Source: a virus
Lineage: Duplodnaviria > Heunggongvirae > Uroviricota > Caudoviricetes
Virus record (IMG/VR): IMGVR_UViG_2698536372_000015
Coordinates: 1 to 16,771 of that record
Length of the DNA: 16,771 bases
Direction: 5' to 3' (one strand)
Shown: positions 1 through 16,771 of the stretch, piece by piece
How positions within the stretch are numbered: the first letter of the stretch is position 1
How the letters are laid out: the number at the start of each line of letters is the position of its first letter
Made by a program: the position numbers and the translations under genes
Notes under the pieces: generated by a model
What the model saw: only the letters and a program-made list of their open reading frames with translations
Database searches by the model: none
Told to the model about the DNA's origin: nothing

Positions 1-66
1 GATACAGGCAGTGTGCTGTTCAATTGCCTCGATCATCTCTTCACGGGTGACTAATGACGTTCTCAT
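1..66 (-). CDS. 5'-partial CDS of unknown function (N-terminus only; continues beyond window start)
   Basis: ATG at 66-64 on the minus strand preceded by a strong Shine-Dalgarno (AGGAGGG); reads MRTSLVTREEMIEAIEQHTACI and runs off the window. The ATG overlaps the TGA stop of the upstream ORF 63..455 as ATGA. Confidence 0.35.
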   Translation of the reverse strand, partial: MRTSLVTREEMIEAIEQHTACI

Positions 67-455
67 AGTCCCTCCTGAGCAGAAGCGTTAACAGGGAGGC
101 ACCAGTAACTGAGAGAATTGCGTGAATCAGTGGAAAAACGGGCAGAGAAAATACAGGGAGCATCCGGAAGCTGAGAACGTGCCTCATCTTCTGTCGGTGC
201 AATAACGAAGTGATAGTGGCGTTTCTGGCAGGAGTAAAAGCGCCAGATAAATTCAGGGCGTGCGCAAGGATTGGCATTAACCATAGTTACGGCCTCATTC
301 GTAGGTTTAACAACCTGCGACCCGCTGTCAAACAGGTGGCAGGACGTGACAGGGTTGACAGACTGGCACGAATGAAACCAGCAGGCCGAAGCCTCCCCAT
401 CACGCCCCACCATAATTCGGGCGTAACGCGGTTTACGGACACAAAAATACCGCAA
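63..455 (-). CDS. hypothetical protein; start uncertain (TTG at 455, or ATG at 284 with a GAGG SD)
   Basis: Open frame whose TGA stop overlaps the start of the next minus-strand gene (ATGA), and whose 3' end encodes that gene's SD. No recognisable motif; composition not strongly protein-like. Confidence 0.3.
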   Translation of the reverse strand: MRYFCVRKPRYARIMVGRDGEASACWFHSCQSVNPVTSCHLFDSGSQVVKPTNEAVTMVNANPCARPEFIWRFYSCQKRHYHFVIAPTEDEARSQLPDAPCIFSARFSTDSRNSLSYWCLPVNASAQEGL

Positions 456-585
456 TATCGGAAATCTGCGGTTGTCCGCATTCGTATTCAGGCTGTCAAA
501 CCTGGTCGCAGAATTTGCTACGACGGTGGAACTATAAGCCTGAACGACGATGAGATCAATAGAGCCGTGTTCGATGGTAGGTTAT

Positions 586-616
586 TTGCTCTAATAAATC
601 AAATTTATTAGAGCAA
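586..616. promoter_or_regulatory. perfect 14-bp inverted repeat (TTGCTCTAATAAAT / ATTTATTAGAGCAA, 3-bp spacer); candidate phage late-promoter or activator site
   Basis: Read directly from the sequence. Each arm matches the motif at 1561-1580. No flanking T-tract, so unlikely to be an intrinsic terminator. Confidence 0.4.
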
Positions 617-627
617 TAATGGTTAAA

Positions 628-879
628 TCATCTTCGCCTGCGTGCCATATATTTGCGCACCGCGCGGCGTGGACAATCTGAAGCGGTTTCTTTCTGCTGC
701 ATCAATCTCGCAGCCATGCTCAAAAAAGTCAGGCACAGCCGAAGCCCGGCATACAATAGCGGTTCCAGTGGCCACGTCTCATTGAGCACATATACCGCCA
801 TGAAAATCGAGTCGAAAACTATCGCCGCCAGCGATAACTTCATTGTCGAAAGTCGGCGGAGCTGCCGGAGTTTATTCAT
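628..879 (-). CDS. small hypothetical membrane protein, translationally coupled to the endolysin gene
   Basis: ATG at 879-877 overlaps the end of the endolysin gene (ATGAATAA). The 83-aa product has a hydrophobic segment (LSLAAIVFDSIFMAVYVL) and a basic C-terminus. No family recognised. Confidence 0.3.
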   Translation of the reverse strand: MNKLRQLRRLSTMKLSLAAIVFDSIFMAVYVLNETWPLEPLLYAGLRLCLTFLSMAARLMQQKETASDCPRRAVRKYMARRRR

Positions 880-1429
880 TGACCAGTCCCGTCAGGCAAA
901 GCTGGCGTTCTTTTTCACGGCGAATCTTTAAACCTCGCAGGGGCACGCCGTTACTGTTCACGAAATCAGGGAGATGGTTACACATATTCACCCATTCCCC
1001 TTTCTGCGCCCACTTGTGGATGGACGTTTCTACTCGCATGCCTCGCGCTTTGCTGTAGTAGGTCCGTAAGCTATTGCATCCCATATTGAATGCCGCGCTT
1101 GTCATTGCACTGAAGGCATTATCGGGCATGTCTTTGCCCCGGAAGTGCTGATTAATACAGCGTTCAGCGATCAGGATATTCTTTTCCCAATCAGCGGCGA
1201 TTTGCTGGTCGGTTTTTCGCACACCCGGCGTTACCCCGTGTGTATTACCGATCCCGTCAGTCCATACCCCCGCAGGGCACATGTATGGATCACGTCGGCA
1301 ACCTTCAGCGTTACCAATCAGCTCAAGCCCCGCCTGGTTGGTTCGCACATTGCCATTACCCATCACGATGGTAATCATCACCGCGATAGCGCAAATTGCA
1401 CCGCCTCCTGCGGCTGTTTTTCCCTTCAT
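872..1429 (-). CDS. lyz: SAR (signal-anchor-release) endolysin, glycoside hydrolase family 24 lysozyme, P1 Lyz-like
   Basis: 185-aa product from the ATG at 1429 (GAGG SD 7 nt upstream). N-terminal Gly/Ala-rich weakly hydrophobic SAR segment (TAAGGGAICAIAVMITIVMG) with Cys13, then Glu42, Cys44 and Cys51 in EGCRRDPYMCPAG, then lysozyme core motifs (GVWTDGIGNTHGV, REKERQLCLTGL). This layout matches what I recall of phage P1 Lyz. The longer ORF-track start at 1528 is rejected. Confidence 0.92.
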   Translation of the reverse strand: MKGKTAAGGGAICAIAVMITIVMGNGNVRTNQAGLELIGNAEGCRRDPYMCPAGVWTDGIGNTHGVTPGVRKTDQQIAADWEKNILIAERCINQHFRGKDMPDNAFSAMTSAAFNMGCNSLRTYYSKARGMRVETSIHKWAQKGEWVNMCNHLPDFVNSNGVPLRGLKIRREKERQLCLTGLVNE

Positions 1430-1560
1430 AAAGACCTCATAAGCGAATTTTTTACGCTCCAGGACAAACACCCATTCACAGCCAATACCGACTGACTCGA
1501 TCCCTTTAGAAGGCACAGGATAATGCAAATCACTTGTTAGCTACGTTTCAAAGATATACA

Positions 1561-1580
1561 TTATTGCTCTAATTAATTTG
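1561..1580. promoter_or_regulatory. third copy of the TTGCTCTAAT[A/T]AAT motif in the lyz-ssb divergent intergenic region; candidate late-promoter element
   Basis: TTATTGCTCTAATTAATTTG matches the reverse complement of 601-620 (19 of 20 positions). Lies between the divergent lyz and ssb starts. Direction of action not determinable from sequence alone. Confidence 0.35.
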
Positions 1581-1598
1581 TTTTATTGGGTAAGAAAA

Positions 1599-2087
1599 GT
1601 GGCACAACGCGGTGTAAACAAAGTCATCCTGATTGGTACCCTGGGGCAAGACCCGGAGATCAGGTATATACCAAATGGCGTCGCGGTCGGAAGACTCAGC
1701 ATCGCAACGAATGAATCATGGCGCGACAAGCAAACGGGCCAACAGAAAGAGCAAACAGAATGGCATAAAGTCGTTTTGTTCGGAAAACTTGCTGAAATTG
1801 CGAGTGAGTATTTACGAAAAGGTTCTCAGGTCTACATCGAAGGGAAACTTAAAACCCGTAAGTGGACAGATGACGCCGGTGTAGAACGTTACACGACGGA
1901 AATTATCGTCAGCCAGGGCGGCACCATGCAAATGATCGGCGCTCGTCGCGACGATTCACAGTCCACAAATGGCTGGGGGCAATCAAACCAACCTCAAAAC
2001 CACCAGCAATACAGCGGTGGTAGCAAACCTCAGAGCAGCGCCAATAACGAACCTCCAATGGACTTTGAAGACGATATTCCGTTTTAG
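1599..2087 (+). CDS. ssb: single-stranded DNA-binding protein (SSB)
   Basis: OB-fold SSB sequence closely resembling E. coli SSB ([50 protein letters not shown]), Gly/Gln-rich linker and the canonical acidic tail [11 protein letters not shown]. Likely GTG start at 1599; the ORF-track start at 1578 is a TTG inside the upstream motif. Confidence 0.93.
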
Positions 2088-2092
2088 AGTTT

Positions 2093-2275
2093 ATGAGTAA
2101 AAAACGACTGAAAGAAAAGCGGTGGTCCAAACGCCAACAAAAGCACGAACTCGCTAAAAAACGCCAAAGTTGGCAATGGAACGCGTTTTTAACGAACAGA
2201 ACACCCCGAGATATTGCTTTCGCTGGTGGGAAAACATTCCTGACCCACCTGAAGGCGCAATACATCAGTTTTTAA
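2093..2275 (+). CDS. possible small basic (Lys/Arg-rich) protein; may be a spurious ORF
   Basis: ATG 6 nt after the ssb stop; 60 aa, highly basic N-terminus (MSKKRLKEKRWSKRQQKHELAKKRQ). Overlaps the long-start version of the next ORF; weak SD. Confidence 0.2.
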   Translation: MSKKRLKEKRWSKRQQKHELAKKRQSWQWNAFLTNRTPRDIAFAGGKTFLTHLKAQYISF

Positions 2276-2289
2276 GCAGAGAAAAGACT

Positions 2290-3078
2290 ATGGCAGCACA
2301 AAATACTAAAACAATTCAATACCGCCTGCGTAATGGCCAGAGTGTCGAAGTGACCATCAATAATGATGGTGTACCTGGCGAAAAGGTTTCTATCTCCGAT
2401 CTGGCTATCGAAAAAACCATCATGTGCCACCTTGGCTTTACTGAAGAAGTGAGCAAAAAGCATGGTGTAGCAATCTGGAGCGCAATGGATACTGGTATGC
2501 GCAAATTCATTACTGCTCGTACCCCAGGGATGACCATGATGGACCTCATGCAGATTGCGCCGCTGTTTGAATGTGAGCCTTTAGATGTATTCAGCAATCC
2601 AGCTATCTGCCAGCAGTTATATGGTGAGGTGAAACTCGCGGTTACCCCCATTGTGCTGCATGAAGGATCGCTTGCTGGCGTGTGGAAAGTGGAGCGTATT
2701 TCAAGCTACATGCCTTTCCATGTCAACGGCGTAATCACTGGTGAAAATCAACCTGTTTCCGTTATAAAGTCAGACCTCAAGCGCGCAATTCTTGAAGCAA
2801 GTTGTCGAGTTATCGGCCTAGGCAAACAGTCTTATGTTTCCTTCCCGGCTGGCCCTGAAGGCCCGGCAGAAATTCTGATTATGGATGCCGATCTGCTCTG
2901 GCAAATACAGTTTCTAATTGGCAAAAGCATCATCCGAGCTGAAGAGCTCGATCAGTACATTACCTGCACGATGACGGATGAAGTCAAAAGTGTGGCTATA
3001 GCCAATGCCAGGAACCTATGTCGTGCTACATTGGCAGAACCGCAAGAAAACATTCCAGAAGAAACAGAAAGTGACTAA
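2290..3078 (+). CDS. hypothetical protein (262 aa from ATG 2290; alternative longer start at 2170 gives 302 aa)
   Basis: Long open frame with protein-like composition directly downstream of ssb; no motif recognised. Start choice is uncertain. Confidence 0.6.
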   Translation: MAAQNTKTIQYRLRNGQSVEVTINNDGVPGEKVSISDLAIEKTIMCHLGFTEEVSKKHGVAIWSAMDTGMRKFITARTPGMTMMDLMQIAPLFECEPLDVFSNPAICQQLYGEVKLAVTPIVLHEGSLAGVWKVERISSYMPFHVNGVITGENQPVSVIKSDLKRAILEASCRVIGLGKQSYVSFPAGPEGPAEILIMDADLLWQIQFLIGKSIIRAEELDQYITCTMTDEVKSVAIANARNLCRATLAEPQENIPEETESD

Positions 3079-3275
3079 TAAAAACCCCGTCAGTTGGCGG
3101 GGAACTCCACGTTAAATGACCAATTATTATGTTAGCTAGCAGTTAAAGCGCCTAGTCATTATCTCTTAAAGAAGTCTTTTTAACTTATCTAAATTAGTGA
3201 CACCTCCCGTTTTGCTTGCTATGGTATGCATTCATAAACCTATTCATTAATCTATTCACAACAGTAATTAAAACT

Positions 3276-4580
3276 ATGGCTACACATGCAACAACAATCC
3301 GTAGCTTGCTCAATCAAGGGCCTATGACACCAAGACAATTGGTTGAAAAACTCAGTGTTAGCCAACCAACGATATCTAGAGCATTAAGAGAACTTGGTGA
3401 TGAAATCGTTAGGATCGGAAATGGAAGATCTATTCAATATGCTTTACGAGACTCTTTTAGAGGATTCGAATCAGTCCCCATTTATCGTATAACTGAAGAG
3501 GGGTGTATTTGCGTTCTTGGTACTCTCATTCCGGTGAGGCCAGAAGGCTATGTTATGGTTGAGGATGGGAAAAATAACAGGCATAGCGATGGGTTACCTT
3601 GGTGGTTATTTGATATGCGTCCACAAGGCTTCCTTGGAAGAGCATATGCATCAGCATATGCTCTTGAACTTAACCTTCCCTCAAATCCAGAGCAATGGTC
3701 AGATACTGATGTGATCAAAGCCTTACTTAAGCATGGGCATGATGTTGTTGGTAATTTGTTAATTGGAGAGCAAGCGCGCACGCATTTTTTAGAGATGCAG
3801 CCTCCTGTTCCTGTTAATCGTGAAATTGAATATCCTGTATTAGCTTTAGCCGCTGGTGAAGGTGATGTGCCAGGTTCATCTGCTGGAGGTGAACAACCCA
3901 AATTTTGTACTTTCACAGAGCGTGGACATGTATTAGTGAAATTCTCTGCGCCTAACGACACCCCTATAAGTGAGCGCTGGAGAGATCTCTTGTTTGCTGA
4001 ACATCTCGCATTAAAAGTTCTGGGGGTAGAAACAGAAGTTTTTGATTATAACGGTCAGAGATTCTTGGAAATTCCCCGATTTGATCGTGTTGGTCAACTC
4101 GGTCGGGTAGGTGTATTCTCACTTCGTGCACTTGATGCAGAATTTGTTGGTAATGCAAGAGCAACATGGCCCTTGCTGGTTAAAGAGTTGGTAAAAAATA
4201 AGTGCGTCCATCCTGATGCGATTATTATAGCAACAAGGCTATGGTCTTTTGGTGTGCTAATAGGCAATACCGATATGCATAATGGCAACCTATCGTTTAT
4301 TAGTAGCCACGGACGCCCATATCATATTGCTCCAGCCTATGACATGTTACCTATGGGTTTTGCCCCACGCTCTGGGGGAGCAATGTCTAATGAGCTTAGA
4401 AAAACAGCACTACCAGACTTTGTAAGTCGAAAAATATGGGATGAATCTCTTGAATTAGCTGAAAAATTTTATGCATTGGCCTGTGAGGCCGACAAATTCT
4501 CAGCTAACTTTACTCCATGTTTAGAAGCACTACGCATCCACCTAGATGATTGTAAAATACGCATAGCCCGCCTGGCATAA
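3276..4580 (+). CDS. HipA-like Ser/Thr kinase with N-terminal helix-turn-helix domain (YjjJ/HipH-like architecture)
   Basis: N-terminal HTH (MTPRQLVEKLSVSQPTISRALRELG). HipA-type motifs: P-loop-like SSAGGEQPKF, catalytic GNTDMHNGNLSF, Mg-binding APAYDMLPMGF. Visibly more AT-rich than flanking genes. Start taken at ATG 3276 (MATHATT...) rather than the ORF-track 3216. Confidence 0.85.
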   Translation: MATHATTIRSLLNQGPMTPRQLVEKLSVSQPTISRALRELGDEIVRIGNGRSIQYALRDSFRGFESVPIYRITEEGCICVLGTLIPVRPEGYVMVEDGKNNRHSDGLPWWLFDMRPQGFLGRAYASAYALELNLPSNPEQWSDTDVIKALLKHGHDVVGNLLIGEQARTHFLEMQPPVPVNREIEYPVLALAAGEGDVPGSSAGGEQPKFCTFTERGHVLVKFSAPNDTPISERWRDLLFAEHLALKVLGVETEVFDYNGQRFLEIPRFDRVGQLGRVGVFSLRALDAEFVGNARATWPLLVKELVKNKCVHPDAIIIATRLWSFGVLIGNTDMHNGNLSFISSHGRPYHIAPAYDMLPMGFAPRSGGAMSNELRKTALPDFVSRKIWDESLELAEKFYALACEADKFSANFTPCLEALRIHLDDCKIRIARLA

Positions 4581-4583
4581 ACA

Positions 4584-4611
4584 AGAAATCCCGCCAATCG
4601 GCGGGATTTCT
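4584..4611. terminator. bidirectional hairpin terminator between convergent genes
   Basis: Perfect 12-bp stem AGAAATCCCGCC / GGCGGGATTTCT with 4-nt loop, 4 nt after the kinase stop and abutting the stop of the minus-strand acidic gene. Confidence 0.6.
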
Positions 4612-4920
4612 TCAATATACGATCTGGTCTACATGATCACCAAAATCATCGTCGTCGTCCTCATCGCCACCCTCTACTGCTGGCCAATCAACAAACCAGC
4701 CAGCGTAAAGATGCAGCGTTCGGAGAACATCACTTGCGGGAGCATCAAGGGTGTTAACGAATCCCATATAGCTATTGGGATTTGCCCCAGCTATGGCTTC
4801 AGCGATCATGTCCTCGGTAATGTCACCGGAGATAATGCTTAAACGCCCGGAAACTTCTTCATTATCATCAAATTCGATAATGGCATCTCCGCCTAATGGC
4901 GCTGCGATTTTAATCTGCAT
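4612..4920 (-). CDS. small highly acidic protein, translationally coupled downstream of the large minus-strand gene
   Basis: ATG at 4920 lies 8 nt upstream of the large gene's stop, with a strong SD (AAGGAG) inside that gene's 3' end. 102 aa, very acidic, C-terminal DEDDDDDFGD run. Confidence 0.6.
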   Translation of the reverse strand: MQIKIAAPLGGDAIIEFDDNEEVSGRLSIISGDITEDMIAEAIAGANPNSYMGFVNTLDAPASDVLRTLHLYAGWFVDWPAVEGGDEDDDDDFGDHVDQIVY

Positions 4921-7897
4921 TATTTAGCTCCTTTGCCACACCTAATAACAGTTCCAGCAATCCGTCACCATTCATCAGTGATGCGGCAGCGGCCTCTTTA
5001 TCATGATACAACTGAAGAGCCATAGAGAATACTTCCGTTGCTGACGTTTTGGAAATAGTCGGTGATTTCTGCCGAATTTTCCCGGTGTTACTTACTGAGG
5101 CTGGCGGGTATACCTTCGCCATATAAATATTACTCAATCGAGATCTGAAGCACCATTCAGGCTTGCCACGCCCACCGATATTGACGAAAGATGGCTTATC
5201 CCCTTCAACATTGGCCTTCAGGAATGACCGGGCTTTCTCTAACAAACCAGGGTTACTGTACTCAAGATGATGACCCAGCTCGTGCCACAGTGCGCTCGCA
5301 TTTTCATCGTTCAAATTGACAGCAACAACACCATTTAGATTTGCATATGCCCTTCCCTGGTGGTGAACTACCTTTGATAAGGTCGATATTTTCCCGCCGG
5401 TCAGGCGATAAATATCAGCAAGTTCCTTGCGCAGGTCTATCCCACCATTCTGTCCAGCGCGGGCTTCTTCCACTTCTTCTGTGATAAAAGAGTCGGCCCA
5501 CTCAAGAGCTTTTTCTTCAGATACGGATGAGTTTGCGATCGCACTGTTCATGGCAGATAACACTTTCTCGTGGACCGAACCCATACTTCGCTGATTCATT
5601 TGCCAGCGTGTCTGCGGGTTATATGAGAATCGCTTAAGTAGTTGGTCAAGCTGCTCAAGTTCTTCTTCACTGACATACTTTTTAGCCTCACCAATAATGC
5701 CAGGGAGAATATTGCCGTTAGGATTAAACGCTCGCGAAAGGAAGAGTTTCAGCGCCCCCATGCCCTCCGATGCTTCAATATCACCAATAACCCGGTTAAC
5801 AATGGCCGCACTCTTCGGATTAGCATCCGCCAACGCTCTGGCTACGATTTGCAGGGACGATACGACCTCACGCTGCATATCAGTCCTGATCTCATCAATA
5901 AACTCTGGCGTTATGCCGTGCTCTTTAAGGATATCCCGGCCTTCCGCCGTTACCCCATCGATATCACCGACATGTTTATTAACACGACTTTGCAATGCCT
6001 TAAATGCCTTCAGAATTCCACGGGCATCATCCGCTTTACTAACGGCCTTCCTGAATGCTGGCAAGAAGTCTGAGTTAACCTCATTTTGTTGATCGGCCCA
6101 CTGAATGGAGGCTTCCTTCATCTCGTCCAGAGTCAGATCACCCAACGCGGTATGGTCTGTGAATATGAGCGATAACCTCTGAACCATTTCTGCCAATGGT
6201 GATGCCGAATGCGCCGCGCTAAGGAATGCTTTCACCCTGGTTGGGCGAATGGAAAACCAGTCAATAGCTGGTGGCATATCTCCGTTTTTTATCGCCTGCG
6301 CTATCTCGTCAAAGCCATCGCGCCCAAGGGAGGATGCGTGATTTAACAAGCCGCGAAGTAACGAATTGCTGATACCGAATAATCGGCACCATTTTTTCAC
6401 GTCGGCAACAGGCATTCGAACAAAATGCGCAAGCACTTGAACAAGCTGTTCATCCTGGGGATCTGTACGGGAAAGCAGCCTGATCAGATGAATAATGTCT
6501 TTGATGCCGGATGCCCGATGTAATAGCAAGCTGGTATATGGAGCAACACCGTTGTAACTACCGCCAGAAGCTGACTCGAAAAGACCGCCAGATATCCCTT
6601 GCATACCTTCGTTTTCCAGTTCCTGAGATACCTGGCGAAGGATATCCTGTAACGACACATCGCCGCCGCCAAACATATCCCCGAGCGCCTGGCCCTGGTG
6701 CTGTAACTCATCATTGATACGTTGCGCCATCAACTTAAAGGCGGTGGCCATACGCTTCGCGCTACGGTTATTCGCGACGATGAACAACGCGAGTGCTTTC
6801 ACTTCCGGGGCCATTTCGCTGAACATATCCCCCTGAGCAATAACATCGGTAATATGCTGGCCTGACTCCTTCGATTGCCTTACCAGGTCTACCGCATCTT
6901 TCAATGCCGCCAGCGCCTTTTTATCGAGGCTATCCGCTGTCTCAATGCCATCAACAATAGTTGTCACAGCCTGCTTGTGCGCTTCTCCTGATAAAGCCTG
7001 CATCTGGACAAAATCATTGGCTGCCGCATTAAGCGCCGTCAGAACATTACGCATATCCGGATCAGGTTCTTCTGCAACCATCCTTACCAGGCGCGCATCC
7101 TTATATGCCTTGGCAAAGATCGCGTTTTGTATACGGTCTACAAGTTGCCGTGTTGGTCGCCCATCTTCAGTTACAAGGCCAGCCGCCTGTGTGGCACCAA
7201 CTTGCGTCATAAATCCGCGAATAAACGCGTCATTACTGCGGCTAAGCAGATCTCCGCTTTCTGACGGATTAAACAGCGCCATCATCGCCGGTGTTATGCT
7301 GTCGGCATCAACAAAAGCCTTTTCACTGGCTGCCATTTCCTGAAGATCAGAAATATTTGAGTCCTTGGCAAACTGAACGCGGTCAACCTTCGTTAACCGG
7401 CGGCGCACCAGTACCGGAGCCGTCATTGATTCAACCTTTTCAGTACGTATGCCGAATTCGGTCGCATGTTCAATCAGGTACTCCCGATACCGATCCGCAT
7501 TACCGTCCTGATAGGCTTTAATGATCCCCATGGTACGTCCATTACCTGACTCAACTGCATTGTCCTCACCAATTATCGGTGCGCCATGGCTGGATAATCC
7601 GGAATCGGTAAGCTGAGCAGGCCGCAAATCTTTGGATATCTGGTTAACCTGAAGAAGGCTGGATGCGCGGGTCCGGTCGCGCGGCTGAAGTTCCTGGGGA
7701 TAGTCAGGATTAATTTTCCCATCCAGAGTATTGGATACCAAAATAGCTGAGGCATCGACGATATCAAACGCTGTTTTTACCTCGTCTCCCTTCGCTGTCA
7801 CCACATACGAAACCCGCCCATAATCGGGCAGGTTCTTTAGCAGCTCGATCAGCGTTTCTATGCTGGTGGCCATTACCACCTGATCGCTTAAGCTCAT
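4910..7897 (-). CDS. large (995 aa) phage protein with an HExxH zinc-metallopeptidase-like motif; possibly an internal virion or antirestriction-type protein (position suggests P1 DdrB, unverified)
   Basis: Uninterrupted 2988-nt frame with protein-like composition. HELGHH encoded at 5284..5267 near the C-terminus. No other motif recognised; the DdrB assignment is from recalled P1 gene order only. Confidence 0.85.
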   Translation of the reverse strand: MSLSDQVVMATSIETLIELLKNLPDYGRVSYVVTAKGDEVKTAFDIVDASAILVSNTLDGKINPDYPQELQPRDRTRASSLLQVNQISKDLRPAQLTDSGLSSHGAPIIGEDNAVESGNGRTMGIIKAYQDGNADRYREYLIEHATEFGIRTEKVESMTAPVLVRRRLTKVDRVQFAKDSNISDLQEMAASEKAFVDADSITPAMMALFNPSESGDLLSRSNDAFIRGFMTQVGATQAAGLVTEDGRPTRQLVDRIQNAIFAKAYKDARLVRMVAEEPDPDMRNVLTALNAAANDFVQMQALSGEAHKQAVTTIVDGIETADSLDKKALAALKDAVDLVRQSKESGQHITDVIAQGDMFSEMAPEVKALALFIVANNRSAKRMATAFKLMAQRINDELQHQGQALGDMFGGGDVSLQDILRQVSQELENEGMQGISGGLFESASGGSYNGVAPYTSLLLHRASGIKDIIHLIRLLSRTDPQDEQLVQVLAHFVRMPVADVKKWCRLFGISNSLLRGLLNHASSLGRDGFDEIAQAIKNGDMPPAIDWFSIRPTRVKAFLSAAHSASPLAEMVQRLSLIFTDHTALGDLTLDEMKEASIQWADQQNEVNSDFLPAFRKAVSKADDARGILKAFKALQSRVNKHVGDIDGVTAEGRDILKEHGITPEFIDEIRTDMQREVVSSLQIVARALADANPKSAAIVNRVIGDIEASEGMGALKLFLSRAFNPNGNILPGIIGEAKKYVSEEELEQLDQLLKRFSYNPQTRWQMNQRSMGSVHEKVLSAMNSAIANSSVSEEKALEWADSFITEEVEEARAGQNGGIDLRKELADIYRLTGGKISTLSKVVHHQGRAYANLNGVVAVNLNDENASALWHELGHHLEYSNPGLLEKARSFLKANVEGDKPSFVNIGGRGKPEWCFRSRLSNIYMAKVYPPASVSNTGKIRQKSPTISKTSATEVFSMALQLYHDKEAAAASLMNGDGLLELLLGVAKELNNAD

Positions 7898-7996
7898 CCC
7901 TGTTACGCCTTATCCAATGTGCCGCCCCCTACGCTCCTCATAGTGGGGATATAAGGCACAGTTTTCCTCCCGGCTATTTTTGCTTAAAATAGTGAC

Positions 7997-9943
7997 ATGA
8001 AACAACAGGTGTCATTCAAATTCCGGTTAAAACCAGATGGTCAACAGGAGCGTCAAATGAGGCGCTTTGCCGGAGCTTGTCGTTTCGTTTTCAACCGTGC
8101 TCTGGCGCTTCAGAATGAGAATCATGAGGCCGGTAAAAAATACATCCCTTACACGAAAATGGCTTCCTGGTTGGTTGAGTGGAAAAAAGACACTGAAACC
8201 GAATGGCTTAAAGATTCTCCCTCACAGCCATTGCAACAGTCACTGAAAGACCTTGAGCGGGCTTACAAAAACTTCTTCCAGAATCGGGCAGCTTTTCCCC
8301 GATTCAAAAAGCGGGGACAGAATGATGCATTCCGCTACCCGCAGGGTGTTAAGCTCGATCAGGAGAACAGCCGTATTTTTCTGCCGAAACTGGGCTGGAT
8401 GCGCTACCGGAATAGCCGTCAGGTCACGGGTGTTGTGAAAAATGTCACTGTCAGCCAGTCCTGCGGTAAGTGGTACATCAGTATTCAGACAGAAAGAGAG
8501 GTATCCACTCCTGTTCACCCTTCTGCATCAATGGTCGGACTGGATGCTGGTGTGGCTAAACTCGCCACGCTGTCAGATGGCACAGTCTTTGAACCTGTAA
8601 ATAGTTTTCAGAAAAACCAGAAGAAGCTGGCGAGACTTCAGCGACAGTTAAGCCGCAAGGTCAAATTCAGCAACAACTGGCAGAAGCAGAAACGCAAAAT
8701 ACAGCGACTGCATTCCCGTATCGCAAATATCCGCAGGGACTACCTTCATAAAGTCACAACGACCGTCAGCAAAAACCACGCAATGATAGTCATTGAGGAT
8801 TTGAAGGTCAGCAACATGTCAAAGTCAGCAGCGGGTACGGTCAGCCAGCCGGGGCGCAATGTCCGGGCAAAATCAGGTTTAAACCGTTCGATACTGGATC
8901 AGGGCTGGTATGAAATGCGCCGCCAGCTTGAGTACAAGCAGCTCTGGCGTGGCGGTCAGGTGCTTGCTGTTCCGCCAGCGTACACAAGCCAGCGTTGCGC
9001 GTGCTGTGGTCATACAGCGAANNNNNNNGCTTTTCCCCGATTCAAAAAGCGGGGACAGAATGATGCATTCCGCTACCCGCAGGGTGTTAAGCTCGATCAG
9101 GAGAACAGCCGTATTTTTCTGCCGAAACTGGGCTGGATGCGCTACCGGAATAGCCGTCAGGTCACGGGTGTTGTGAAAAATGTCACTGTCAGCCAGTCCT
9201 GCGGTAAGTGGTACATCAGTATTCAGACAGAAAGAGAGGTATCCACTCCTGTTCACCCTTCTGCATCAATGGTCGGACTGGATGCTGGTGTGGCTAAACT
9301 CGCCACGCTGTCAGATGGCACAGTCTTTGAACCTGTAAATAGTTTTCAGAAAAACCAGAAGAAGCTGGCGAGACTTCAGCGACAGTTAAGCCGCAAGGTC
9401 AAATTCAGCAACAACTGGCAGAAGCAGAAACGCAAAATACAGCGACTGCATTTTCGTATCGCAAATATCCGCAGAGACTACCTTCATAAAGTCACAACGA
9501 TCATCAGCAAAAACCACGCAATGATTGTCATTGAGGATTTGAAGGTTAAAAACATGGCAAAGTCAGCAGCGGGTACGGTCAGCCAGCCGGGGCGCAATGT
9601 CTGGACAAAATCAGGTTTAAACCGTTCGATACTGGATCAGGGCTGGTATGAAATGCGCCGCCAGCTTGAGTATAAGCAGCTCTGGCATGGCGGTCAGGTA
9701 CTGGCAGTGCCGCCAGCGTACACAAGCCAGCGTTGCGCGTGCTGTGGTCATACCGCGAAAGAAAATCGCCTGTCACAAAGTAAATTCAGATGCCAGGTAT
9801 GTGGATATACAGCGAACGCCGATGTAAACGGCGCTCGTAACATTTTAGCGGCGGGGCACGCCGTTCTTGCCTGTGGAGGGATGGTGCAGTCAGGCCGCCC
9901 GTTGAAGCAGGAACCAACCGAAATGATTCAGGCGATAGCCTGA
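7997..9943 (+). CDS. tnpB: IS605-family TnpB (OrfB) RNA-guided nuclease; assembled ORF artefactually lengthened by an in-frame 738-nt duplication across a 7-N gap (true length about 402 aa)
   Basis: RuvC-I GLDAG, RuvC-II VIEDL, zinc finger CACCGH...CQVCGY, Ruv[14 protein letters not shown]. Blocks 8291-9021 and 9029-9759 are near-identical and separated by NNNNNNN; the offset is 738 nt, so the frame is kept and the translation shows XXX. Confidence 0.85.
8291..9021. repeat. first copy of duplicated 731-bp tnpB segment, ending at the assembly gap
   Basis: Identical to 9029-9452 over the first 424 bp, then roughly 15-20 substitutions by eye up to the gap. Confidence 0.8.
9029..9759. repeat. 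second copy of duplicated tnpB segment, contiguous with the tnpB 3' end
   Basis: Begins immediately after the N run at 9022-9028 and continues into the C-terminal zinc-finger region. Confidence 0.8.
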
Positions 9944-10004
9944 ACGTAGCAGGAATCCACGCCCGTCAGGGTGCGGAGGATGTCAAAAGGCAGGTGAGGT
10001 TATA

Positions 10005-10136
10005 ATGAGAAAACTATTACTACCGTTATTATTTATGGCCGGGACTGTTAATGCAGCATCAAGCGTGAAGGAGATTTGTACCGATTATACGAAATACCTT
10101 GGGCACGTTTACGCCTTTGCGATCAATGACTATTAA
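10005..10136 (+). CDS. small exported peptide (43 aa, predicted signal peptide)
   Basis: ATG with a good SD (GGTGAGG); N-terminal signal-peptide-like MRKLLLPLLFMAGTVNA; mature part about 26 aa with one Cys. Below the ORF-track length cut-off; found by reading. Confidence 0.4.
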   Translation: MRKLLLPLLFMAGTVNAASSVKEICTDYTKYLGHVYAFAINDY

Positions 10137-10157
10137 TCCATGCGTAGGAGTGGATTT

Positions 10158-10475
10158 ATGCTGATTCGTTTGTTTTTAGTGCTTTCCTTTTTAACATTTA
10201 ATGTTTTTGCTGATGAAGTTGACTTTTCGAAGGTAGATTGCAATTCAGTGGAAACAAGAAAAGCTCTTATTGAAGAATATAACGAAATATTATCGTCATA
10301 TGGAATAACAGTGGTTGATTCTTATAATCAAAAAACTATTCAGAAAGGAATAAATAAACTGGTTTGTTATGGGGTTTACCAATATTCAGATGGCTCTTCG
10401 GAGTATGTTATTTATAAAGCATACCCAAATAGTCTTGGTGAATTGATTAGTGAGTTTAAACCGATTAATGAGTGA
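10158..10475 (+). CDS. small exported protein (105 aa, cleavable signal peptide, two Cys)
   Basis: ATG at 10158 with SD AGGAG. Signal peptide MLIRLFLVLSFLTFNVFA followed by an acidic mature start. Very AT-rich coding sequence. Confidence 0.6.
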   Translation: MLIRLFLVLSFLTFNVFADEVDFSKVDCNSVETRKALIEEYNEILSSYGITVVDSYNQKTIQKGINKLVCYGVYQYSDGSSEYVIYKAYPNSLGELISEFKPINE

Positions 10476-10482
10476 ATGGAAA

Positions 10483-11262
10483 ATGAAATTATTTAATGTA
10501 ATAACATTTTGTTGTGCTATTTTTGCTGGAAGCGCGATAGCTGATAATAAATTGCCAGATTGGCTTTCTACTTCAAAAAAAGATTATGATTTAGTAAGGG
10601 TGTTCTATTTGTCTGGATTTGCCTCGAAAGCAATGAATAATCAATTTGGTTATCATTTTCCATCTGAGTTGGTTAATGATTTTAAAGATAATGAATTTGC
10701 CGCTCAGGAAAAATGGAATAAAATTTCAATTGTATATGGTGAAATAAAATCCATAAGAATGGTGAATAATGAACCAATTGTAGAGTTATTTACTCCAGGG
10801 GAAAATGCAACGCCACTAAATTATATCAAATTGAAAGTGTTGGATTCAAAACAAAACTCTCTGTTAAAACTAAAAAAAGGGGATGATATATATGCAGTGT
10901 GCTCCGGTGCTAATTTTAGTTTAGTGCCAATTCTGAGCAACTGCACTCCAGCAACTGACGTCATTGATGCTGCACTCTCTTTTTCTGGTGAATATATGTT
11001 CCCTGCTTTTGATTCTTTTTCACCTACTAAGCAAAACGTCAAATATATATTCACAAATCAAGATCCTGTTCAGATGATGAATTTTATAGGGTACCTATCC
11101 TTAGTCGATACAACGAAGGATAAGAATAAAATGGATATGGTTCGTAAGTGTACGCCTTGGAAGCCGGAATGTTCACAACAATTCGTTGATGTAATGGAAG
11201 GATTTGATAACATCATGTATAAATATGAGAGGGAATTTAAAAATTACATAGAATTAAAATAG
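10483..11262 (+). CDS. exported protein (259 aa, signal peptide, several Cys), unknown function
   Basis: ATG at 10483 is 8 nt after the upstream stop. Signal peptide MKLFNVITFCCAIFAGSAIA with a likely signal peptidase I site (no clear lipobox). Very AT-rich. Confidence 0.65.
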   Translation: MKLFNVITFCCAIFAGSAIADNKLPDWLSTSKKDYDLVRVFYLSGFASKAMNNQFGYHFPSELVNDFKDNEFAAQEKWNKISIVYGEIKSIRMVNNEPIVELFTPGENATPLNYIKLKVLDSKQNSLLKLKKGDDIYAVCSGANFSLVPILSNCTPATDVIDAALSFSGEYMFPAFDSFSPTKQNVKYIFTNQDPVQMMNFIGYLSLVDTTKDKNKMDMVRKCTPWKPECSQQFVDVMEGFDNIMYKYEREFKNYIELK

Positions 11263-11294
11263 TATTTGAAATGATAGTCAATTTAAGTTTTAAC

Positions 11295-11326
11295 AAAACG
11301 CCCATTAAAGGGCGTTTTATTGTTTT
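11295..11326 (+). terminator. rho-independent terminator of the exported-protein operon
   Basis: Stem AAAACGCCC / GGGCGTTTT with loop ATTAAA, followed by a T-rich run (ATTGTTTT). Confidence 0.7.
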
Positions 11327-11430
11327 ACTCAAAACAATCTGATTATGTGATAACCATATCATATTCCTCATTCCACCTACACTGATTACCCCCCAGACAA
11401 CAACATTCCTACTCAATGAACAAATGACTA

Positions 11431-12038
<608 letters not shown>

Positions 12039-12048
12039 GGGGGCTGAT

Positions 12049-12660
12049 ATGGGGCTTAATGTTGCTTCAGTAAAGTCTTATGTATCTTCGGCATTAACGA
12101 CGACATTATTTGGCTCCGGCGTTGGTGAGCGGGAAGTTGGTAAGCTGACGTCAATCATCATGAACAAAATGCTGTTCGCGCAAGGATGGCAGTTCTCTGT
12201 CGAAGTTGATGGTCTGGAGGGGGCAGACTTCTTTGCCAAAGACATTACCTACCACGATTACAGCATCGAATATGAAACGATTAAAATAGGCGGAGGGAAT
12301 ATCCTTCAGCCAACGGAGCGTTCGCCTGGGCAGATAACAATGATGGTCAGGGATACCGTTGATGGCCTCGTTTTGGACTGGTTTAAGACGGCAAAAGGTC
12401 GGGTGATCAATCCGGACGGTACCGGGAATATACCGTCTAAATATTTGCTCAATGTGCGTATTTATCGGTTGCTGTCCTCCGGTTTAACCAAACTGGAAAA
12501 TGAGATGACGGTATTCCCGGTCACTACCGGCGATGTCACCTATGCGCGGGATCAGGTTACGGAATTTAAGTCATTCCCAATGACCTTCGCATTGCACAGC
12601 ACGTTTAACCAATCCTCAAGTTCTTTAGCTTCCCTTCTGGGCTTTAGTTTTTCTCTTTGA
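12049..12660 (+). CDS. hypothetical phage structural protein, 203 aa
   Basis: SD GAGGGGG 7 nt upstream; starts 10 nt after the previous stop. No motif recognised. Confidence 0.7.
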   Translation: MGLNVASVKSYVSSALTTTLFGSGVGEREVGKLTSIIMNKMLFAQGWQFSVEVDGLEGADFFAKDITYHDYSIEYETIKIGGGNILQPTERSPGQITMMVRDTVDGLVLDWFKTAKGRVINPDGTGNIPSKYLLNVRIYRLLSSGLTKLENEMTVFPVTTGDVTYARDQVTEFKSFPMTFALHSTFNQSSSSLASLLGFSFSL

Positions 12661-12674
12661 ATTAAGGAGCAAGG

Positions 12675-13556
12675 ATGCTTTTACCTCTTTTCCCGCTACC
12701 ATCGCGGCCAACTGAATTGATCCAGTTCCGTCAGCCAAATATTGCTGATGCGATGCGTTTCAACTCGATAACACCGGAGGAACAAGAACAACAGACAACG
12801 GCGTATTTAAAAGCCTTGCTGGCTGAACCCGCGAAATATGATCCCCTGACATGGACGGCGCAGGACCGGATTACCGCGTTATGGTGGATATTTACTGGCT
12901 CCCGTGAAACACCGGTCGAGACATTCACCTACACCTGTAAACATTGCGGTAAAGAGCATTATTACGATTGCGATATGAATGCTCTGGCTGAAGATATCCA
13001 GGTCCTGGAAGTGGAACCGTTCATTGACGATATTGAGGTGTCTGTAGAGGGCGTGCCTTATCAATGGCGTATCGTGCCGCTTGATGGTTGGGCAATGGAA
13101 ATGCTGGAGATGCGCCGTGCAGCATTGCCACCTGAAGACGACGCGGAATTCAAAGAAGCGATCGTTGATTTGCGTTTTTGGGAATTCGCTTATCAGTGTG
13201 AACTTTATAACGATGTTAGCGGTACTCGTGAAGAGCAGGCTGAGCGTCGTTATGAAACGATCAAACGGATGGCCATTGATACTGAATTTATGAAGCTGGC
13301 GGCACACATCCGACTGGCTCATGAAAAGCTCGAACATGGTTTACCGTGCTACATCGATAAAGGCGAAATGCGTCTTCGTCTCCCGCCGCACAAATGCCCA
13401 AACCAGGATAAAAAGGAGTCCACAGAGGGTGCGTATACCCGTCTGTGGGTGCCCTTTCGGGCTACCGACTTCATTCCACAGGTGGGGATTGAAAAGCTAT
13501 CAGACCTTAGTGTCCAACCTGGTTTTGTATGGGGGTATACCGATTCAGGACGCTGA
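12675..13556 (+). CDS. hypothetical phage structural or assembly protein with Cys cluster (possible zinc ribbon), 293 aa
   Basis: SD AAGGAG. Cys cluster CKHCGKEHYYDCD plus distal Cys residues. Position directly before the tape-measure-like gene. Confidence 0.7.
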   Translation: MLLPLFPLPSRPTELIQFRQPNIADAMRFNSITPEEQEQQTTAYLKALLAEPAKYDPLTWTAQDRITALWWIFTGSRETPVETFTYTCKHCGKEHYYDCDMNALAEDIQVLEVEPFIDDIEVSVEGVPYQWRIVPLDGWAMEMLEMRRAALPPEDDAEFKEAIVDLRFWEFAYQCELYNDVSGTREEQAERRYETIKRMAIDTEFMKLAAHIRLAHEKLEHGLPCYIDKGEMRLRLPPHKCPNQDKKESTEGAYTRLWVPFRATDFIPQVGIEKLSDLSVQPGFVWGYTDSGR

Positions 13557-13637
13557 AAGGCTCACTGAATCCTATGCGTTTTTCCTGTTGGAGAAACTGG
13601 AAGAAAAACTTAAACCGAAGCGGTAGGCGATAAGATC

Positions 13638-16600
13638 ATGGAAAGAAAAAACGCCAACATTGACGATGTGATAAGGACGGTTGAAACCGCCAGCGCAAAA
13701 GAGCTGGAAGAGCTTGCAGGTATTCGGGAAGCTGTTGAAGATTTGAAAGGGGGGCGAGTTGCTACTGTTGATCCTGTCTCTCGCAGCGTGTCGGCATTAA
13801 ATCGCACAATCGAAAATTCCCGGCCTGACTTTGTGGCCAAAGCGCCATCCGTAGACCCTATTGTTGACGCAATGAAACGGCTTAATTTAGGGGACGTTTC
13901 TCGTGTAGTTCAGGAAGATGTTGCTCAACAGGAACAGCGGGCCAAATCAACCACACAAAAGGGTAAAAAACGACGCAGGAAGGCTATACCAGAGGATGTA
14001 AAGGCACAACGGACCGAAGCAGCCGAACACGCTCGCGAAATGTTCGGTCAAAAAGGCGGTGCGCAAAAAAGCCAAAACCAACGCGATGCGCGTGGTCGTT
14101 TTATTGGAAAGTCAGGGAGTAAGGCCGCAGCGGAAGATGCCCGTGCTGAACGAGCAGAAAAGGCCAGGCGAAAAGAGGATGATGAGCGTCTAAATGCTGA
14201 ATCAGGTTTATTAAAAAAACTGTCAAAAGTAGCTGAAGGCATAGGTAACCCTTCAGAGACTCGTGCCGTCGATGCGTTAGGTTACGCCGTTGCTGGTCCA
14301 TTGTGGGCAGCAGGGAAGGAGCTTGGCGGGATATCAAAAGAAGTTGGTGGATCGCTTAATGGTGCCAGAAAGTCTATTGCCGATGTGATTCGTGGCAATG
14401 ACGATAACAGCCGTAGAAAAGGTTTTTTTAGGCGTAAATCGCAAAATAGTGCCGATGTCGTTCAGGTTAACACCCAAAAACGGACGGTTCAGGAACTTCA
14501 GGAGCAGACCAGCGAAATTAAAGAGGGCAATGACAAGATTCTCCGTGCCCTTGATCAGATAGCCAAAAACACCGGTAAAAAGAAGGGCGGCTTGCTGTCC
14601 AAACTATTTAGCCTGTTAGGGAAGGGGGCCGGTGGCGTCGCGTCGTTGTTAATGGGGCGTGGCATGCTGAAAAAAGCTGGAGCACTCGCTTTTGGCGCTC
14701 TGGGGGCAAAGAAACTTGTAGGAATGCTACGCGGTGGTGGCAAGAAGACTCTCGCTCATGAAGGCGGAGATTTGGCTGCCCGGGCAGCAGGTAAACTTGG
14801 ATTAAAGGCAGTTGGTAAAGGGGCGTTACGCGCAATTCCCCTAGTCGGCACAGTGGCTGGAGGTATTTATGGTGCGGTAACCGGTTGGAATGATACAGAA
14901 GCGCAACGTCGAGCGTTTGGGCTTAAATCAGGACAAGATCCATCATTCCAGCAAAAAGCCGCTTATACGTTAGCTAATGTTCTTGATATGGGGGGACTGG
15001 TATCTGGTATTAGCAGCGCCATTGGTGAGGTTCTCAAATCACTTGGATTTGAGGATATCGGCAATATGTTGCAATCATTTTCGACGGAAAGTATTGCCCA
15101 GGCCATTGATAGTGGGATTACCAACTTAGAAACATATATTTCTAATCTTGGCGACACCATTTCTACCAAGTTCGATGATTATACAGCAAAGATTGGTGAT
15201 GCTATTTCTGCATGGTTCAGTGACACCACAAAGAATCTGAACGAAAAATTAGACGCCATCAAAAACTTCTTTACTGTCGATAACCTGAAACAGGTTTTCA
15301 GTGATGCAATTGATAGTGCAATTGATTTCATTAAGAATCCTGGGAAATACATTAAAGAGGCTGGCAGTAATCTATGGAGTGCCGCAAAAGAGCTTTCAGG
15401 TGAGGTTGCAGATGCCGCTGTTCAGAGCACCCCTGTGGCCTGGGTTGCATCAAAGCTAGTCAACAAAGCGGATGCGAAAGAGGTTACACCTGAATTAAAA
15501 ACACCAGCTAAAGAAAGTCAGGAGGACAATGCTCCTAAGACTGAATATACCCCTAAAAAGGCTAATATTGTCACTCGTGTTGTAAATGCATCCCTAGATA
15601 CGGCGAAAGATAGCAATAAAACAGTTAAAGAAACTGCCAATCAGATTATCAATGCAAATGCCGTAGAAACGGGCAATCGCGCGTTGCAGAAAATTGATAA
15701 TGCTATTGGTCAAAATAGCTCATCATCATCGTCGCTTAATACTACTGGCACCAGGAATGACATTCAGAAAGCTGCGGATACCTACAACAATGGCAACTTA
15801 GATGTAAAAGTCGGAAGCCTTGGCGCTGAAGGTAAGGCAAATCTCGATAAGTTGGCTCCGTATTTTGCTGAACTAGAGAATAAATATGGCCTTCCTGAAG
15901 GTACTCTTTACGCGATCGCTGCAACTGAATCTGGTGGTGATCCTAACGCAAAATCTACGCTTACAAGATCACCAAATGGAAAGCTAAGTGGTGGCGCTCT
16001 CGGAATGTTCCAGTTTACGAGCGTTGCTCGTGAGGAAACTGGATTATCCCGGGAAGATTCTTTTAATCCGGAAAAATCGGCAGAAGCTGCGGCTCTTCTC
16101 ATGAGCAAGTATCTGAAGCAAGCCAATGGAGACTTAAACGAGGCCATCACTGCATATAACGCTGGGTTTGGCACTATCAATAAGTGGAAAAAAGGCACAG
16201 GTGACTTATCGAAAGAAAACCGTGAGTACGCGATCAAGGTCAATACTCATCGTGCTCGCTATTTAGGTGGTGAAATCTATACACCTGGAGCAGGAGCACA
16301 GGGTGGGGCGCAATATGGAGTGAGGGGACCACTGCCTGATAACGCTGTTATCGATCAGTCTACTGGCCTGGCGTTTACCCCTGGTGATAGCCCGTTTGAG
16401 AAAGGTGGTCTGGTAGACAAAATTGGCAATGCTGTTGGCGTTAACGATCTGGTCAACAAATTCATGAATGGCCGGGGTATGCGTCGGGAAGTCGTTCAGG
16501 GAACGCTCGAAGAACGTGCACGAGGGAAGGGGACCGCAACAGCAGCTGGCAATGTGTATGTTGATACTCCGATGCCAGTTGAAGAGGCACGTCCGGTGGC

Positions 16601-16771
16601 CAACAACTCAAGTTACTTTGACCAGCTCGGCGCACAAATGGGGATTGATGGACTGTATGACAAACTCATTAATGCCCGGGGAATGCGCTCAAATAATTCT
16701 CCTCAACCAGCCTCCACGTCCCAGGTGACGACTGCCGCCAACGATTTGCAGCAACCAACCGGTCGTATGCA
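13638..16771 (+). CDS. 3'-partial tape-measure-like structural protein with lytic transglycosylase (SLT) domain, P1 Sit-like; continues beyond window end
   Basis: Frame open from ATG 13638 to the window end (over 1040 codons). Basic and coiled N-terminal region, Gly-rich hydrophobic segment (GKGAGGVASLLMGRGMLKKAGALAFGALGAKKLVG), and SLT motifs AIAATESGG (Glu codon 15927-15929), GALGMFQF and AYNAGFG. Confidence 0.88.
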   Translation, partial: MERKNANIDDVIRTVETASAKELEELAGIREAVEDLKGGRVATVDPVSRSVSALNRTIENSRPDFVAKAPSVDPIVDAMKRLNLGDVSRVVQEDVAQQEQRAKSTTQKGKKRRRKAIPEDVKAQRTEAAEHAREMFGQKGGAQKSQNQRDARGRFIGKSGSKAAAEDARAERAEKARRKEDDERLNAESGLLKKLSKVAEGIGNPSETRAVDALGYAVAGPLWAAGKELGGISKEVGGSLNGARKSIADVIRGNDDNSRRKGFFRRKSQNSADVVQVNTQKRTVQELQEQTSEIKEGNDKILRALDQIAKNTGKKKGGLLSKLFSLLGKGAGGVASLLMGRGMLKKAGALAFGALGAKKLVGMLRGGGKKTLAHEGGDLAARAAGKLGLKAVGKGALRAIPLVGTVAGGIYGAVTGWNDTEAQRRAFGLKSGQDPSFQQKAAYTLANVLDMGGLVSGISSAIGEVLKSLGFEDIGNMLQSFSTESIAQAIDSGITNLETYISNLGDTISTKFDDYTAKIGDAISAWFSDTTKNLNEKLDAIKNFFTVDNLKQVFSDAIDSAIDFIKNPGKYIKEAGSNLWSAAKELSGEVADAAVQSTPVAWVASKLVNKADAKEVTPELKTPAKESQEDNAPKTEYTPKKANIVTRVVNASLDTAKDSNKTVKETANQIINANAVETGNRALQKIDNAIGQNSSSSSSLNTTGTRNDIQKAADTYNNGNLDVKVGSLGAEGKANLDKLAPYFAELENKYGLPEGTLYAIAATESGGDPNAKSTLTRSPNGKLSGGALGMFQFTSVAREETGLSREDSFNPEKSAEAAALLMSKYLKQANGDLNEAITAYNAGFGTINKWKKGTGDLSKENREYAIKVNTHRARYLGGEIYTPGAGAQGGAQYGVRGPLPDNAVIDQSTGLAFTPGDSPFEKGGLVDKIGNAVGVNDLVNKFMNGRGMRREVVQGTLEERARGKGTATAAGNVYVDTPMPVEEARPVANNSSYFDQLGAQMGIDGLYDKLINARGMRSNNSPQPASTSQVTTAANDLQQPTGRM

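Follow-up and report, generated by a model that had tools for sequence, protein, structure and literature searches.

False duplications at scaffold gaps are a recognised class of misassembly. The element affected in the present case is a tnpB insertion sequence (IS) that is found between ddrB and ddrA in many P1-like plasmids and phages, for example pM121-2 (L001), MBT-5 (L007), RCS47 and SJ46, and the 15 independent viral and metagenome contigs recovered by a search for its right-end pattern are all collinear with the order ddrB-IS-ddrA-darA. A second site, between icd and simC, is occupied in E. albertii p06-3542, in IMGVR_UViG_2684622670_000009 (L005), in the Salmonella plasmid pSE18-SA00377-0-P2 and in four complete E. 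coli plasmids; icd lies on the left-end side in 7 of the 7 records of the IS-sim junction.

Here, we analyze a stretch of viral DNA of 16,771 bases, called the window, which combines the left flank of the ddrB-ddrA site with the right flank of the icd-sim site. Between these flanks, the sequence contains a duplicated block and a tnpB open reading frame (ORF) of 648 codons. We will show that neither the duplication nor the ORF is a real feature. Very probably, both are an assembly artefact, in which two contig ends stemming from different, inverted copies of the tnpB IS were joined by a scaffolder.

The deposited scaffold and its gap

The window is the complete reverse complement of CYEF01000063.1 (GCA_001283205.2), which is likewise 16,771 bp long and contains the same 7 N, and the Ns are thus not masking that was added to the window. 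An exact-sequence look-up with the 995-aa DdrB protein had CYEF01000063.1 as its single match. As deposited, this record is a scaffold of two contigs, which in the window occupy 1-9021 (contig 1) and 9029-16771 (contig 2). The features discussed below are the following, with positions in the window and the strand where one applies.

1-9021: contig 1, a P1-like backbone with icd-like, lyz, ssb, HipA-family yjjJ, iddB and ddrB genes, and the first 1108 nt of the IS
4910-7897, minus strand: ddrB (995 aa), the left unique flank of the IS; Pfam ddrB-ParB, annotated as DdrB in phages RCS47 and SJ46
7910-7913, plus strand: TTAT target motif directly 5' of the IS left end, from the empty-site comparison with NZ_CP045829
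7914-9021, plus strand: IS copy 1, ddrB-ddrA-site type, with the left end and IS positions 1-1108 of 1335; collinear with L001 and 15 other contigs that run into ddrA-darA
7997-9943, plus strand: 648-codon tnpB ORF, artefactual, containing XXX; OrfB_IS605 twice and TNB twice (Pfam)
8291-8714, plus strand (second copy at 9029-9452): 424-bp identical tract with mosaic alleles, from the 17-copy comparison
8291-9021, plus strand: block A (731 bp), the end of contig 1 that overlaps with contig 2; equal to L001 at 19/19 diagnostic sites
9022-9028: scaffold gap of 7 N, the sole N run, also in the public record
9029-9759, plus strand: block B (731 bp), the start of contig 2 that overlaps with contig 1; equal to L005 at 19/19 diagnostic sites
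9029-9986, plus strand: IS copy 2, icd-sim-site type, with IS positions 378-1335 including the right end
9987-16771, plus strand: unique part of contig 2, with the sim region, three small genes and the 5' part of sit (SLT transglycosylase; Pfam SLT)

The window was found to be of P1-like phage-plasmid type, as the lyz-ssb-ddrB and sim-sit blocks are, block by block, 97-99% identical to many P1-like plasmids. The best complete relative of both scaffold halves is NZ_CP045829. Positions 1-7913 are 99.1% identical to it (and 99.0% to NZ_CP058684) and align to its positions 50172-42259 on the minus strand, while 9987-16771 are 97.9% identical to its positions 23602-30404 on the plus strand. The genes in the unique part of contig 2 are annotated simC/simB in P1. 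Across the IS, the order is not collinear with P1-like plasmids.

Some parts of the backbone are themselves variable or repeated. At the left scaffold end, positions 1-620 hold an icd-like/antirepressor module that is present in several paralogous copies per P1-like plasmid (positions 1-619 match two places in L003 and four in L004), and these copies are a plausible reason for the contig break there. The slot between ssb and iddB/ddrB is variable and is occupied here by a HipA-family toxin gene (yjjJ-like, Pfam HipA_C; 3216-4580, plus strand); other P1-like cargo in or beside this region includes ompC, in the same slot of pM121-2, and gldA, beside ddrA in E. albertii p06-3542. In sit, no megablast alignment to the plasmids of Salmonella and E. 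albertii is obtained for the stretches 14636-14804 and 15710-16334, whose flanks do align, a pattern that points to a locally variable gene segment.

The only N run of the window separates two blocks of 731 bp, A and B, which are offset by exactly 738 nt and are 97.4% identical, a similarity that is far beyond chance for stretches of this length. Their first 424 bp (8291-8714 in block A) are the same, and the 19 substitutions between them all lie within 8715-9016. The 7 nt to the left of block A (8284-8290, TCGGGCA) are without counterpart, since only Ns are found to the left of block B, and to the right of block B the sequence continues with AGAAAAT. Both copies thus abut the N run and stop exactly there, as in a false duplication. 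The initial annotation of this DNA had described the 7 N, the two 731-bp blocks and their 738-nt offset precisely as they are found here, and had put the differences beyond the 424 identical bp at roughly 15-20 substitutions, which agrees with the count of 19.

It is instructive to consider where the two contigs end. Contig 2 starts one base past the type-diagnostic site 8290 (A in ddr-type copies, T in sim-type), which is where one would expect an extension based on a consensus or a graph to break off. The end of contig 1, at 9021, is 5 nt beyond the last diagnostic site (9016) and at no known polymorphic site. De Bruijn node boundaries would account for one of the two ends: the start of contig 2 fits them, but the end of contig 1 and the length of the 7-N gap fit no simple rule.

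The insertion sequence and its two copies

The ends of the IS were defined against NZ_CP045829, a plasmid without the element. At the ddr site, the empty sequence GCCTTAT/GCTGCC (with a slash at the junction) becomes GCCTTAT/CCAATGTG...GATGTCAC/GCTGCC in L001, and the target is not duplicated. At the sim site, TTAT/AAGGCAGG becomes TTAT/...GATGTCAA/AAGGCAGG, the right junction being GATGTCAA/AAGGCAGG, and the sim-site copy in L005 is also located 3' of TTAT. With TTAT at both sites, no target duplication, and the empty sites of NZ_CP045829 restored exactly when the element is taken out, the insertion is of the motif-specific kind. The IS is 1335 bp long; its span in the window, 7914-9986, is inflated by 738 nt.

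No tnpA (Y1 transposase) is present in the element, in which 83 nt separate the left end at 7914 from the tnpB start at 7997 and 43 nt follow the stop codon. It is a non-autonomous, tnpB-only member of the IS200/IS605 family, and the IS itself is of a known kind. No Rfam family matched positions 7700-10300 at E ≤ 0.01 in the search for a guide (omega/re) RNA.

The real tnpB is 1209 nt long and its product 402 aa, as in all related annotated copies that were inspected; these are annotated as RNA-guided endonuclease TnpB, InsQ or IS605 transposase. When either of the two blocks is deleted in silico, a TnpB of 402 aa is obtained from the window as well, with HTH_OrfB_IS605, OrfB_IS605 and TNB present once each (PF12323, PF01385 and PF07282, all above cut-offs; TNB is a Cas12f1-like zinc finger), which is the TnpB architecture of IS200/IS605 elements. 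The plasmid and phage records that match best lack 738 bp of the IS region as it stands in the window and thus hold a single copy of the block. Since 738 nt correspond to 246 codons, the frame is kept over the gap and a single ORF of 648 codons results, and a 648-aa product is listed in the gene table for CYEF01000063.1. The initial annotation had called this ORF artefactual, and the 402-aa relatives, the normal domain set after removal of a block and the two doubled domains of the 648-aa version all bear this out.

Two further observations on these elements can be added. At the right end of the IS (9960-9979 in the window), ddr-type copies have a perfect hairpin, CCACGCCC TTCG GGGCGTGG, and the sim-type copies (the window, L002 and L005) have CCACGCCC GTCA GGGTGCGG, giving an A.C mismatch and a G.T pair; this stem-loop region would fall in the transposon end and in any guide RNA. 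Additional tnpB-only elements are seen in P1-like plasmids (L001 13178-14353; L004 9866-10996 and 24502-25713), the sites being beside the lydA holin, between pro and the portal gene, and beside the terminase genes. P1-like phage-plasmids, that is, gather several TnpB insertion sequences.

The alleles of the two copies in the window were typed in an alignment of 17 IS copies. Block A has the common ddr-site allele (L001, L019) at 19/19 diagnostic sites, and the 5' part of the IS in contig 1 (7914-8290) is of the ddr type too (L001-like). Block B has the allele of the L005 sim-site copy at 19/19 sites, and among the 17 copies it shares this full set with that sequence only. The right-end alleles at 9865, 9916, 9936 and 9965-9974 also all match L005 alone, L002 sharing just those at 9965-9974. 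Over 9029-10120 the window is 99.2% identical to L005, and among complete E. coli genomes no match to 9029-9985 exceeds 96.6%. Both blocks continue without a break into the flank that corresponds to their allele type. The two halves of the duplication thus trace to two different repeat copies, a possibility that had been raised on first reading of the sequence and that the site-specific alleles and matching flanks now substantiate.

The 424-bp tract shows a mosaic of alleles. Its 8524T and 8551T are found elsewhere only in L005, the sim-site copy, and its 8365G is unique among the 17 copies compared. The identity of this tract between the two blocks reflects either a genuine gene-conversion tract between IS copies or a collapsed assembly node. 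Mosaic alleles are also seen across plasmids: the ddr-site copy L011 has sim-type alleles at 8935-9016, and sim-type alleles at 8788-8812 occur in L007, L008, L010, L014, L015 and L018. From these allele patterns, gene conversion among IS copies would appear to be frequent.

Origin of the ddrB-IS-sim order

Searches for the ddrB-IS-sim junction were made with a collapsed query, consisting of both flanks and one IS copy, at a threshold of at least 80% coverage. No record reached this coverage among 72,556 plasmids or among 5,426 complete E. coli genomes, and with the uncollapsed region none was found among 50,697 phage records. An IUPAC pattern of the right end that covers both allele types had no match in the genome contigs; it matched 9 viral and 8 metagenome loci, none of them with ddrB-IS-sim. 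The 30-mer spanning the IS right end and sim was found, in viral contigs, only in L005, which has icd on its left.

The geometry of the complete relatives is informative in this context. There, the ddrB and sim flanks are ca 18.2-18.7 kb apart (ca 18.7 kb in NZ_CP045829) and in opposite relative orientation, which means that the scaffold represents an inversion-type jump between inverted IS copies and not a deletion. In pSE18-SA00377-0-P2 (NZ_CP071390), the layout is ddrB(-) tnpB(+) ddrA(-), 18.2 kb, simC(-) tnpB(-) icd(+), with the two IS copies inverted and each in its canonical flanks; contig 1 aligns to the plus strand on one side and contig 2 to the minus strand on the other. The initial annotation had warned that gene adjacency across the gap is unreliable, and the absence of ddrB-IS-sim from the plasmids, E. 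coli genomes, phages and pattern-matched contigs that were searched supports this. It had also suggested that a misjoin could explain why genes of the P1-type layout are missing. That part has to be modified: the adjacency is indeed untrustworthy, but the genes are not simply missing, as in complete relatives the two flanks lie at the above distance from each other and inverted.

The course of events that we favor, namely a scaffolder joining the ends of two different IS copies, can be outlined as follows. The source would be a P1-like phage-plasmid in GCA_001283205.2 with two copies of the 1335-bp tnpB-only IS, copy 1 between ddrB and ddrA and copy 2, inverted and ca 18 kb away, between icd and sim. 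We infer that both copies, and also the reciprocal ends (IS right end-ddrA and icd-IS left end), are on the source plasmid of the window. Short-read assembly would have given one contig that runs from ddrB 1108 nt into copy 1 and another that runs from position 378 of copy 2 into sim. The scaffolder would have linked these ends, presumably via read pairs in IS sequence common to both copies, i.e. the 424-bp tract and also, provided that copy 1 resembles L001, ca 848 bp at 9017-9864. Pairs of this kind would connect contig 2 to the end of contig 1 regardless of which flank is the true continuation. Because of the 19 differences in the 731-bp overlap, the ends could not be merged, and we propose that the 7-N gap was left for this reason. 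The join would have three by-products, namely the seeming tandem duplication, the 648-aa TnpB that stays in frame, and the adjacency ddrB-IS-sim. An origin in two contig ends joined by a scaffolder had been suspected from the start, and it is in line with blocks that end exactly at the Ns of a complete deposited scaffold. Greedy scaffolding by read pairs, together with gap filling, is documented to produce such false joins (PMC5320598); for CYEF01, an SSPACE/GapFiller scenario would be an analogy only.

The real neighbours are then most likely ddrB-IS-ddrA and icd-IS-sim. In this canonical model, the 3' end of the ddr-type IS would have 9865A, 9916C and 9936C and the right end ...CTTCGGGGCGTGGAGGATGTCAC, and would continue into ddrA-darA, while icd would be followed by a left end of sim type (CCGGTGCGCCTTATATCCCC...). 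On contig 1, ddr alleles are linked to ddrB as far as 9016, and on contig 2, sim alleles from 8715 onwards are linked to sim, so that no single IS produced by one crossover fits both. At face value, therefore, only the non-inverted two-copy layout is compatible with the two contigs. This consistency argument would be weaker if the identical tracts (424 bp, and probably the ca 848 bp at 9017-9864) are longer than the library insert, in which case the phasing within the contigs may be wrong.

An inversion has to be weighed against this scaffolding error. Homologous recombination between the inverted IS copies could have flipped the ca 18-kb ddrA-to-sim segment. In that event, some or all molecules of the population would really have the order ddrB-IS-sim, and the artefact would be confined to the duplicated block and the 648-aa ORF. 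The order in the window is the exact product expected from copies oriented as in NZ_CP071390, the 424-bp tract with its otherwise sim-specific 8524T and 8551T could be the conversion tract of such a recombination, the mosaic alleles among plasmids indicate that the copies do recombine, and the scaffolder had some evidence linking the two ends. We nevertheless consider the inversion unlikely, although it deserves to be taken seriously. Its junction is found in no searched collection, the sole complete plasmid with both copies is canonical, and the contigs at face value jointly fit only the layout without inversion; read pairs in common IS sequence would give the same link in a non-inverted plasmid. 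If the inversion is true, the flipped segment would be the ca 18-kb ddrA-darA-lysis-tail-sit-sim region, ddrB/iddB would be detached from the rest of the darA operon, and the 424-bp tract would be the associated conversion tract.

Two other options can be regarded as highly improbable. In the first, part of a single tnpB (738 bp) would truly be duplicated in tandem and in frame, the Ns merely masking the junction. It is true that the offset is divisible by three and leaves the ORF open, but a multiple of three is a one-in-three event by chance, and Ns placed exactly on the junction imply an assembler without sequence across it. Moreover, the annotated copies inspected all have 402 aa and the best-matching records are shorter by the length of the offset. 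What leads us to reject the tandem duplication is that the 19 differences are not random changes of the kind that follow a duplication; they reproduce two pre-existing natural allele sets tied to the two insertion sites. The other option, which has just as little probability, is that the second allele set comes from outside the plasmid, be it from a chromosomal IS copy, a second co-resident P1-like element or a mixed culture. Related chromosomal copies do exist in more than 90% of complete E. coli genomes, but most such copies (largely chromosomal) are only 90-95% identical. Block B, on the other hand, is contiguous with the IS right end and the sim flank in a stretch that is 99.2% identical to a sim-site plasmid copy, which places the IS-sim junction on the P1-like backbone itself, and both scaffold halves have the same complete plasmid as their best match. 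A chromosomal origin of block B was rejected because of this continuity with the IS-sim junction.

The main import of the scaffolding artefact is a warning about data quality, as the gene table for a public record contains a fused 648-aa TnpB call and the record itself shows a ddrB-IS-sim order without sequence support. Surveys that rely on CYEF01000063.1 could be led astray, whether they address the length and domain diversity of TnpB or synteny in P1-like phage-plasmids. On the biological side, two TTAT sites of a P1-like plasmid can be occupied by inverted copies of the same tnpB-only IS, and this makes a substrate for an 18-kb inversion.

Comparison with known systems

The elements at the ddrB-ddrA site of RCS47, SJ46 and pM121-2 share with the window the left junction TTAT/CCAATGTG... 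and the 402-aa TnpB architecture, and they are 98-99% identical to contig 1. In those three, the IS right end is followed by ddrA-darA, whereas contig 1 of the window breaks off within the IS, where another copy has been joined on. IS-mediated inversion between inverted repeats gives a product with the same geometry as the scaffold; in the present case it is without sequence support, the junction being the gap.

The only complete plasmid found to have the IS at both the ddrB-ddrA and the icd-sim sites is pSE18-SA00377-0-P2 (NZ_CP071390.1, from Salmonella Agona), and its layout is the one inferred for the source of the window. Its two copies are more diverged, with 93.8% identity to each other, and its sim-site copy is ca 94% identical to contig 2, compared to 99.2% for L005. 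With respect to false duplications at scaffold gaps, the window corresponds to that class in its arrangement, in which contig ends that overlap without being identical follow one another across a short run of Ns.
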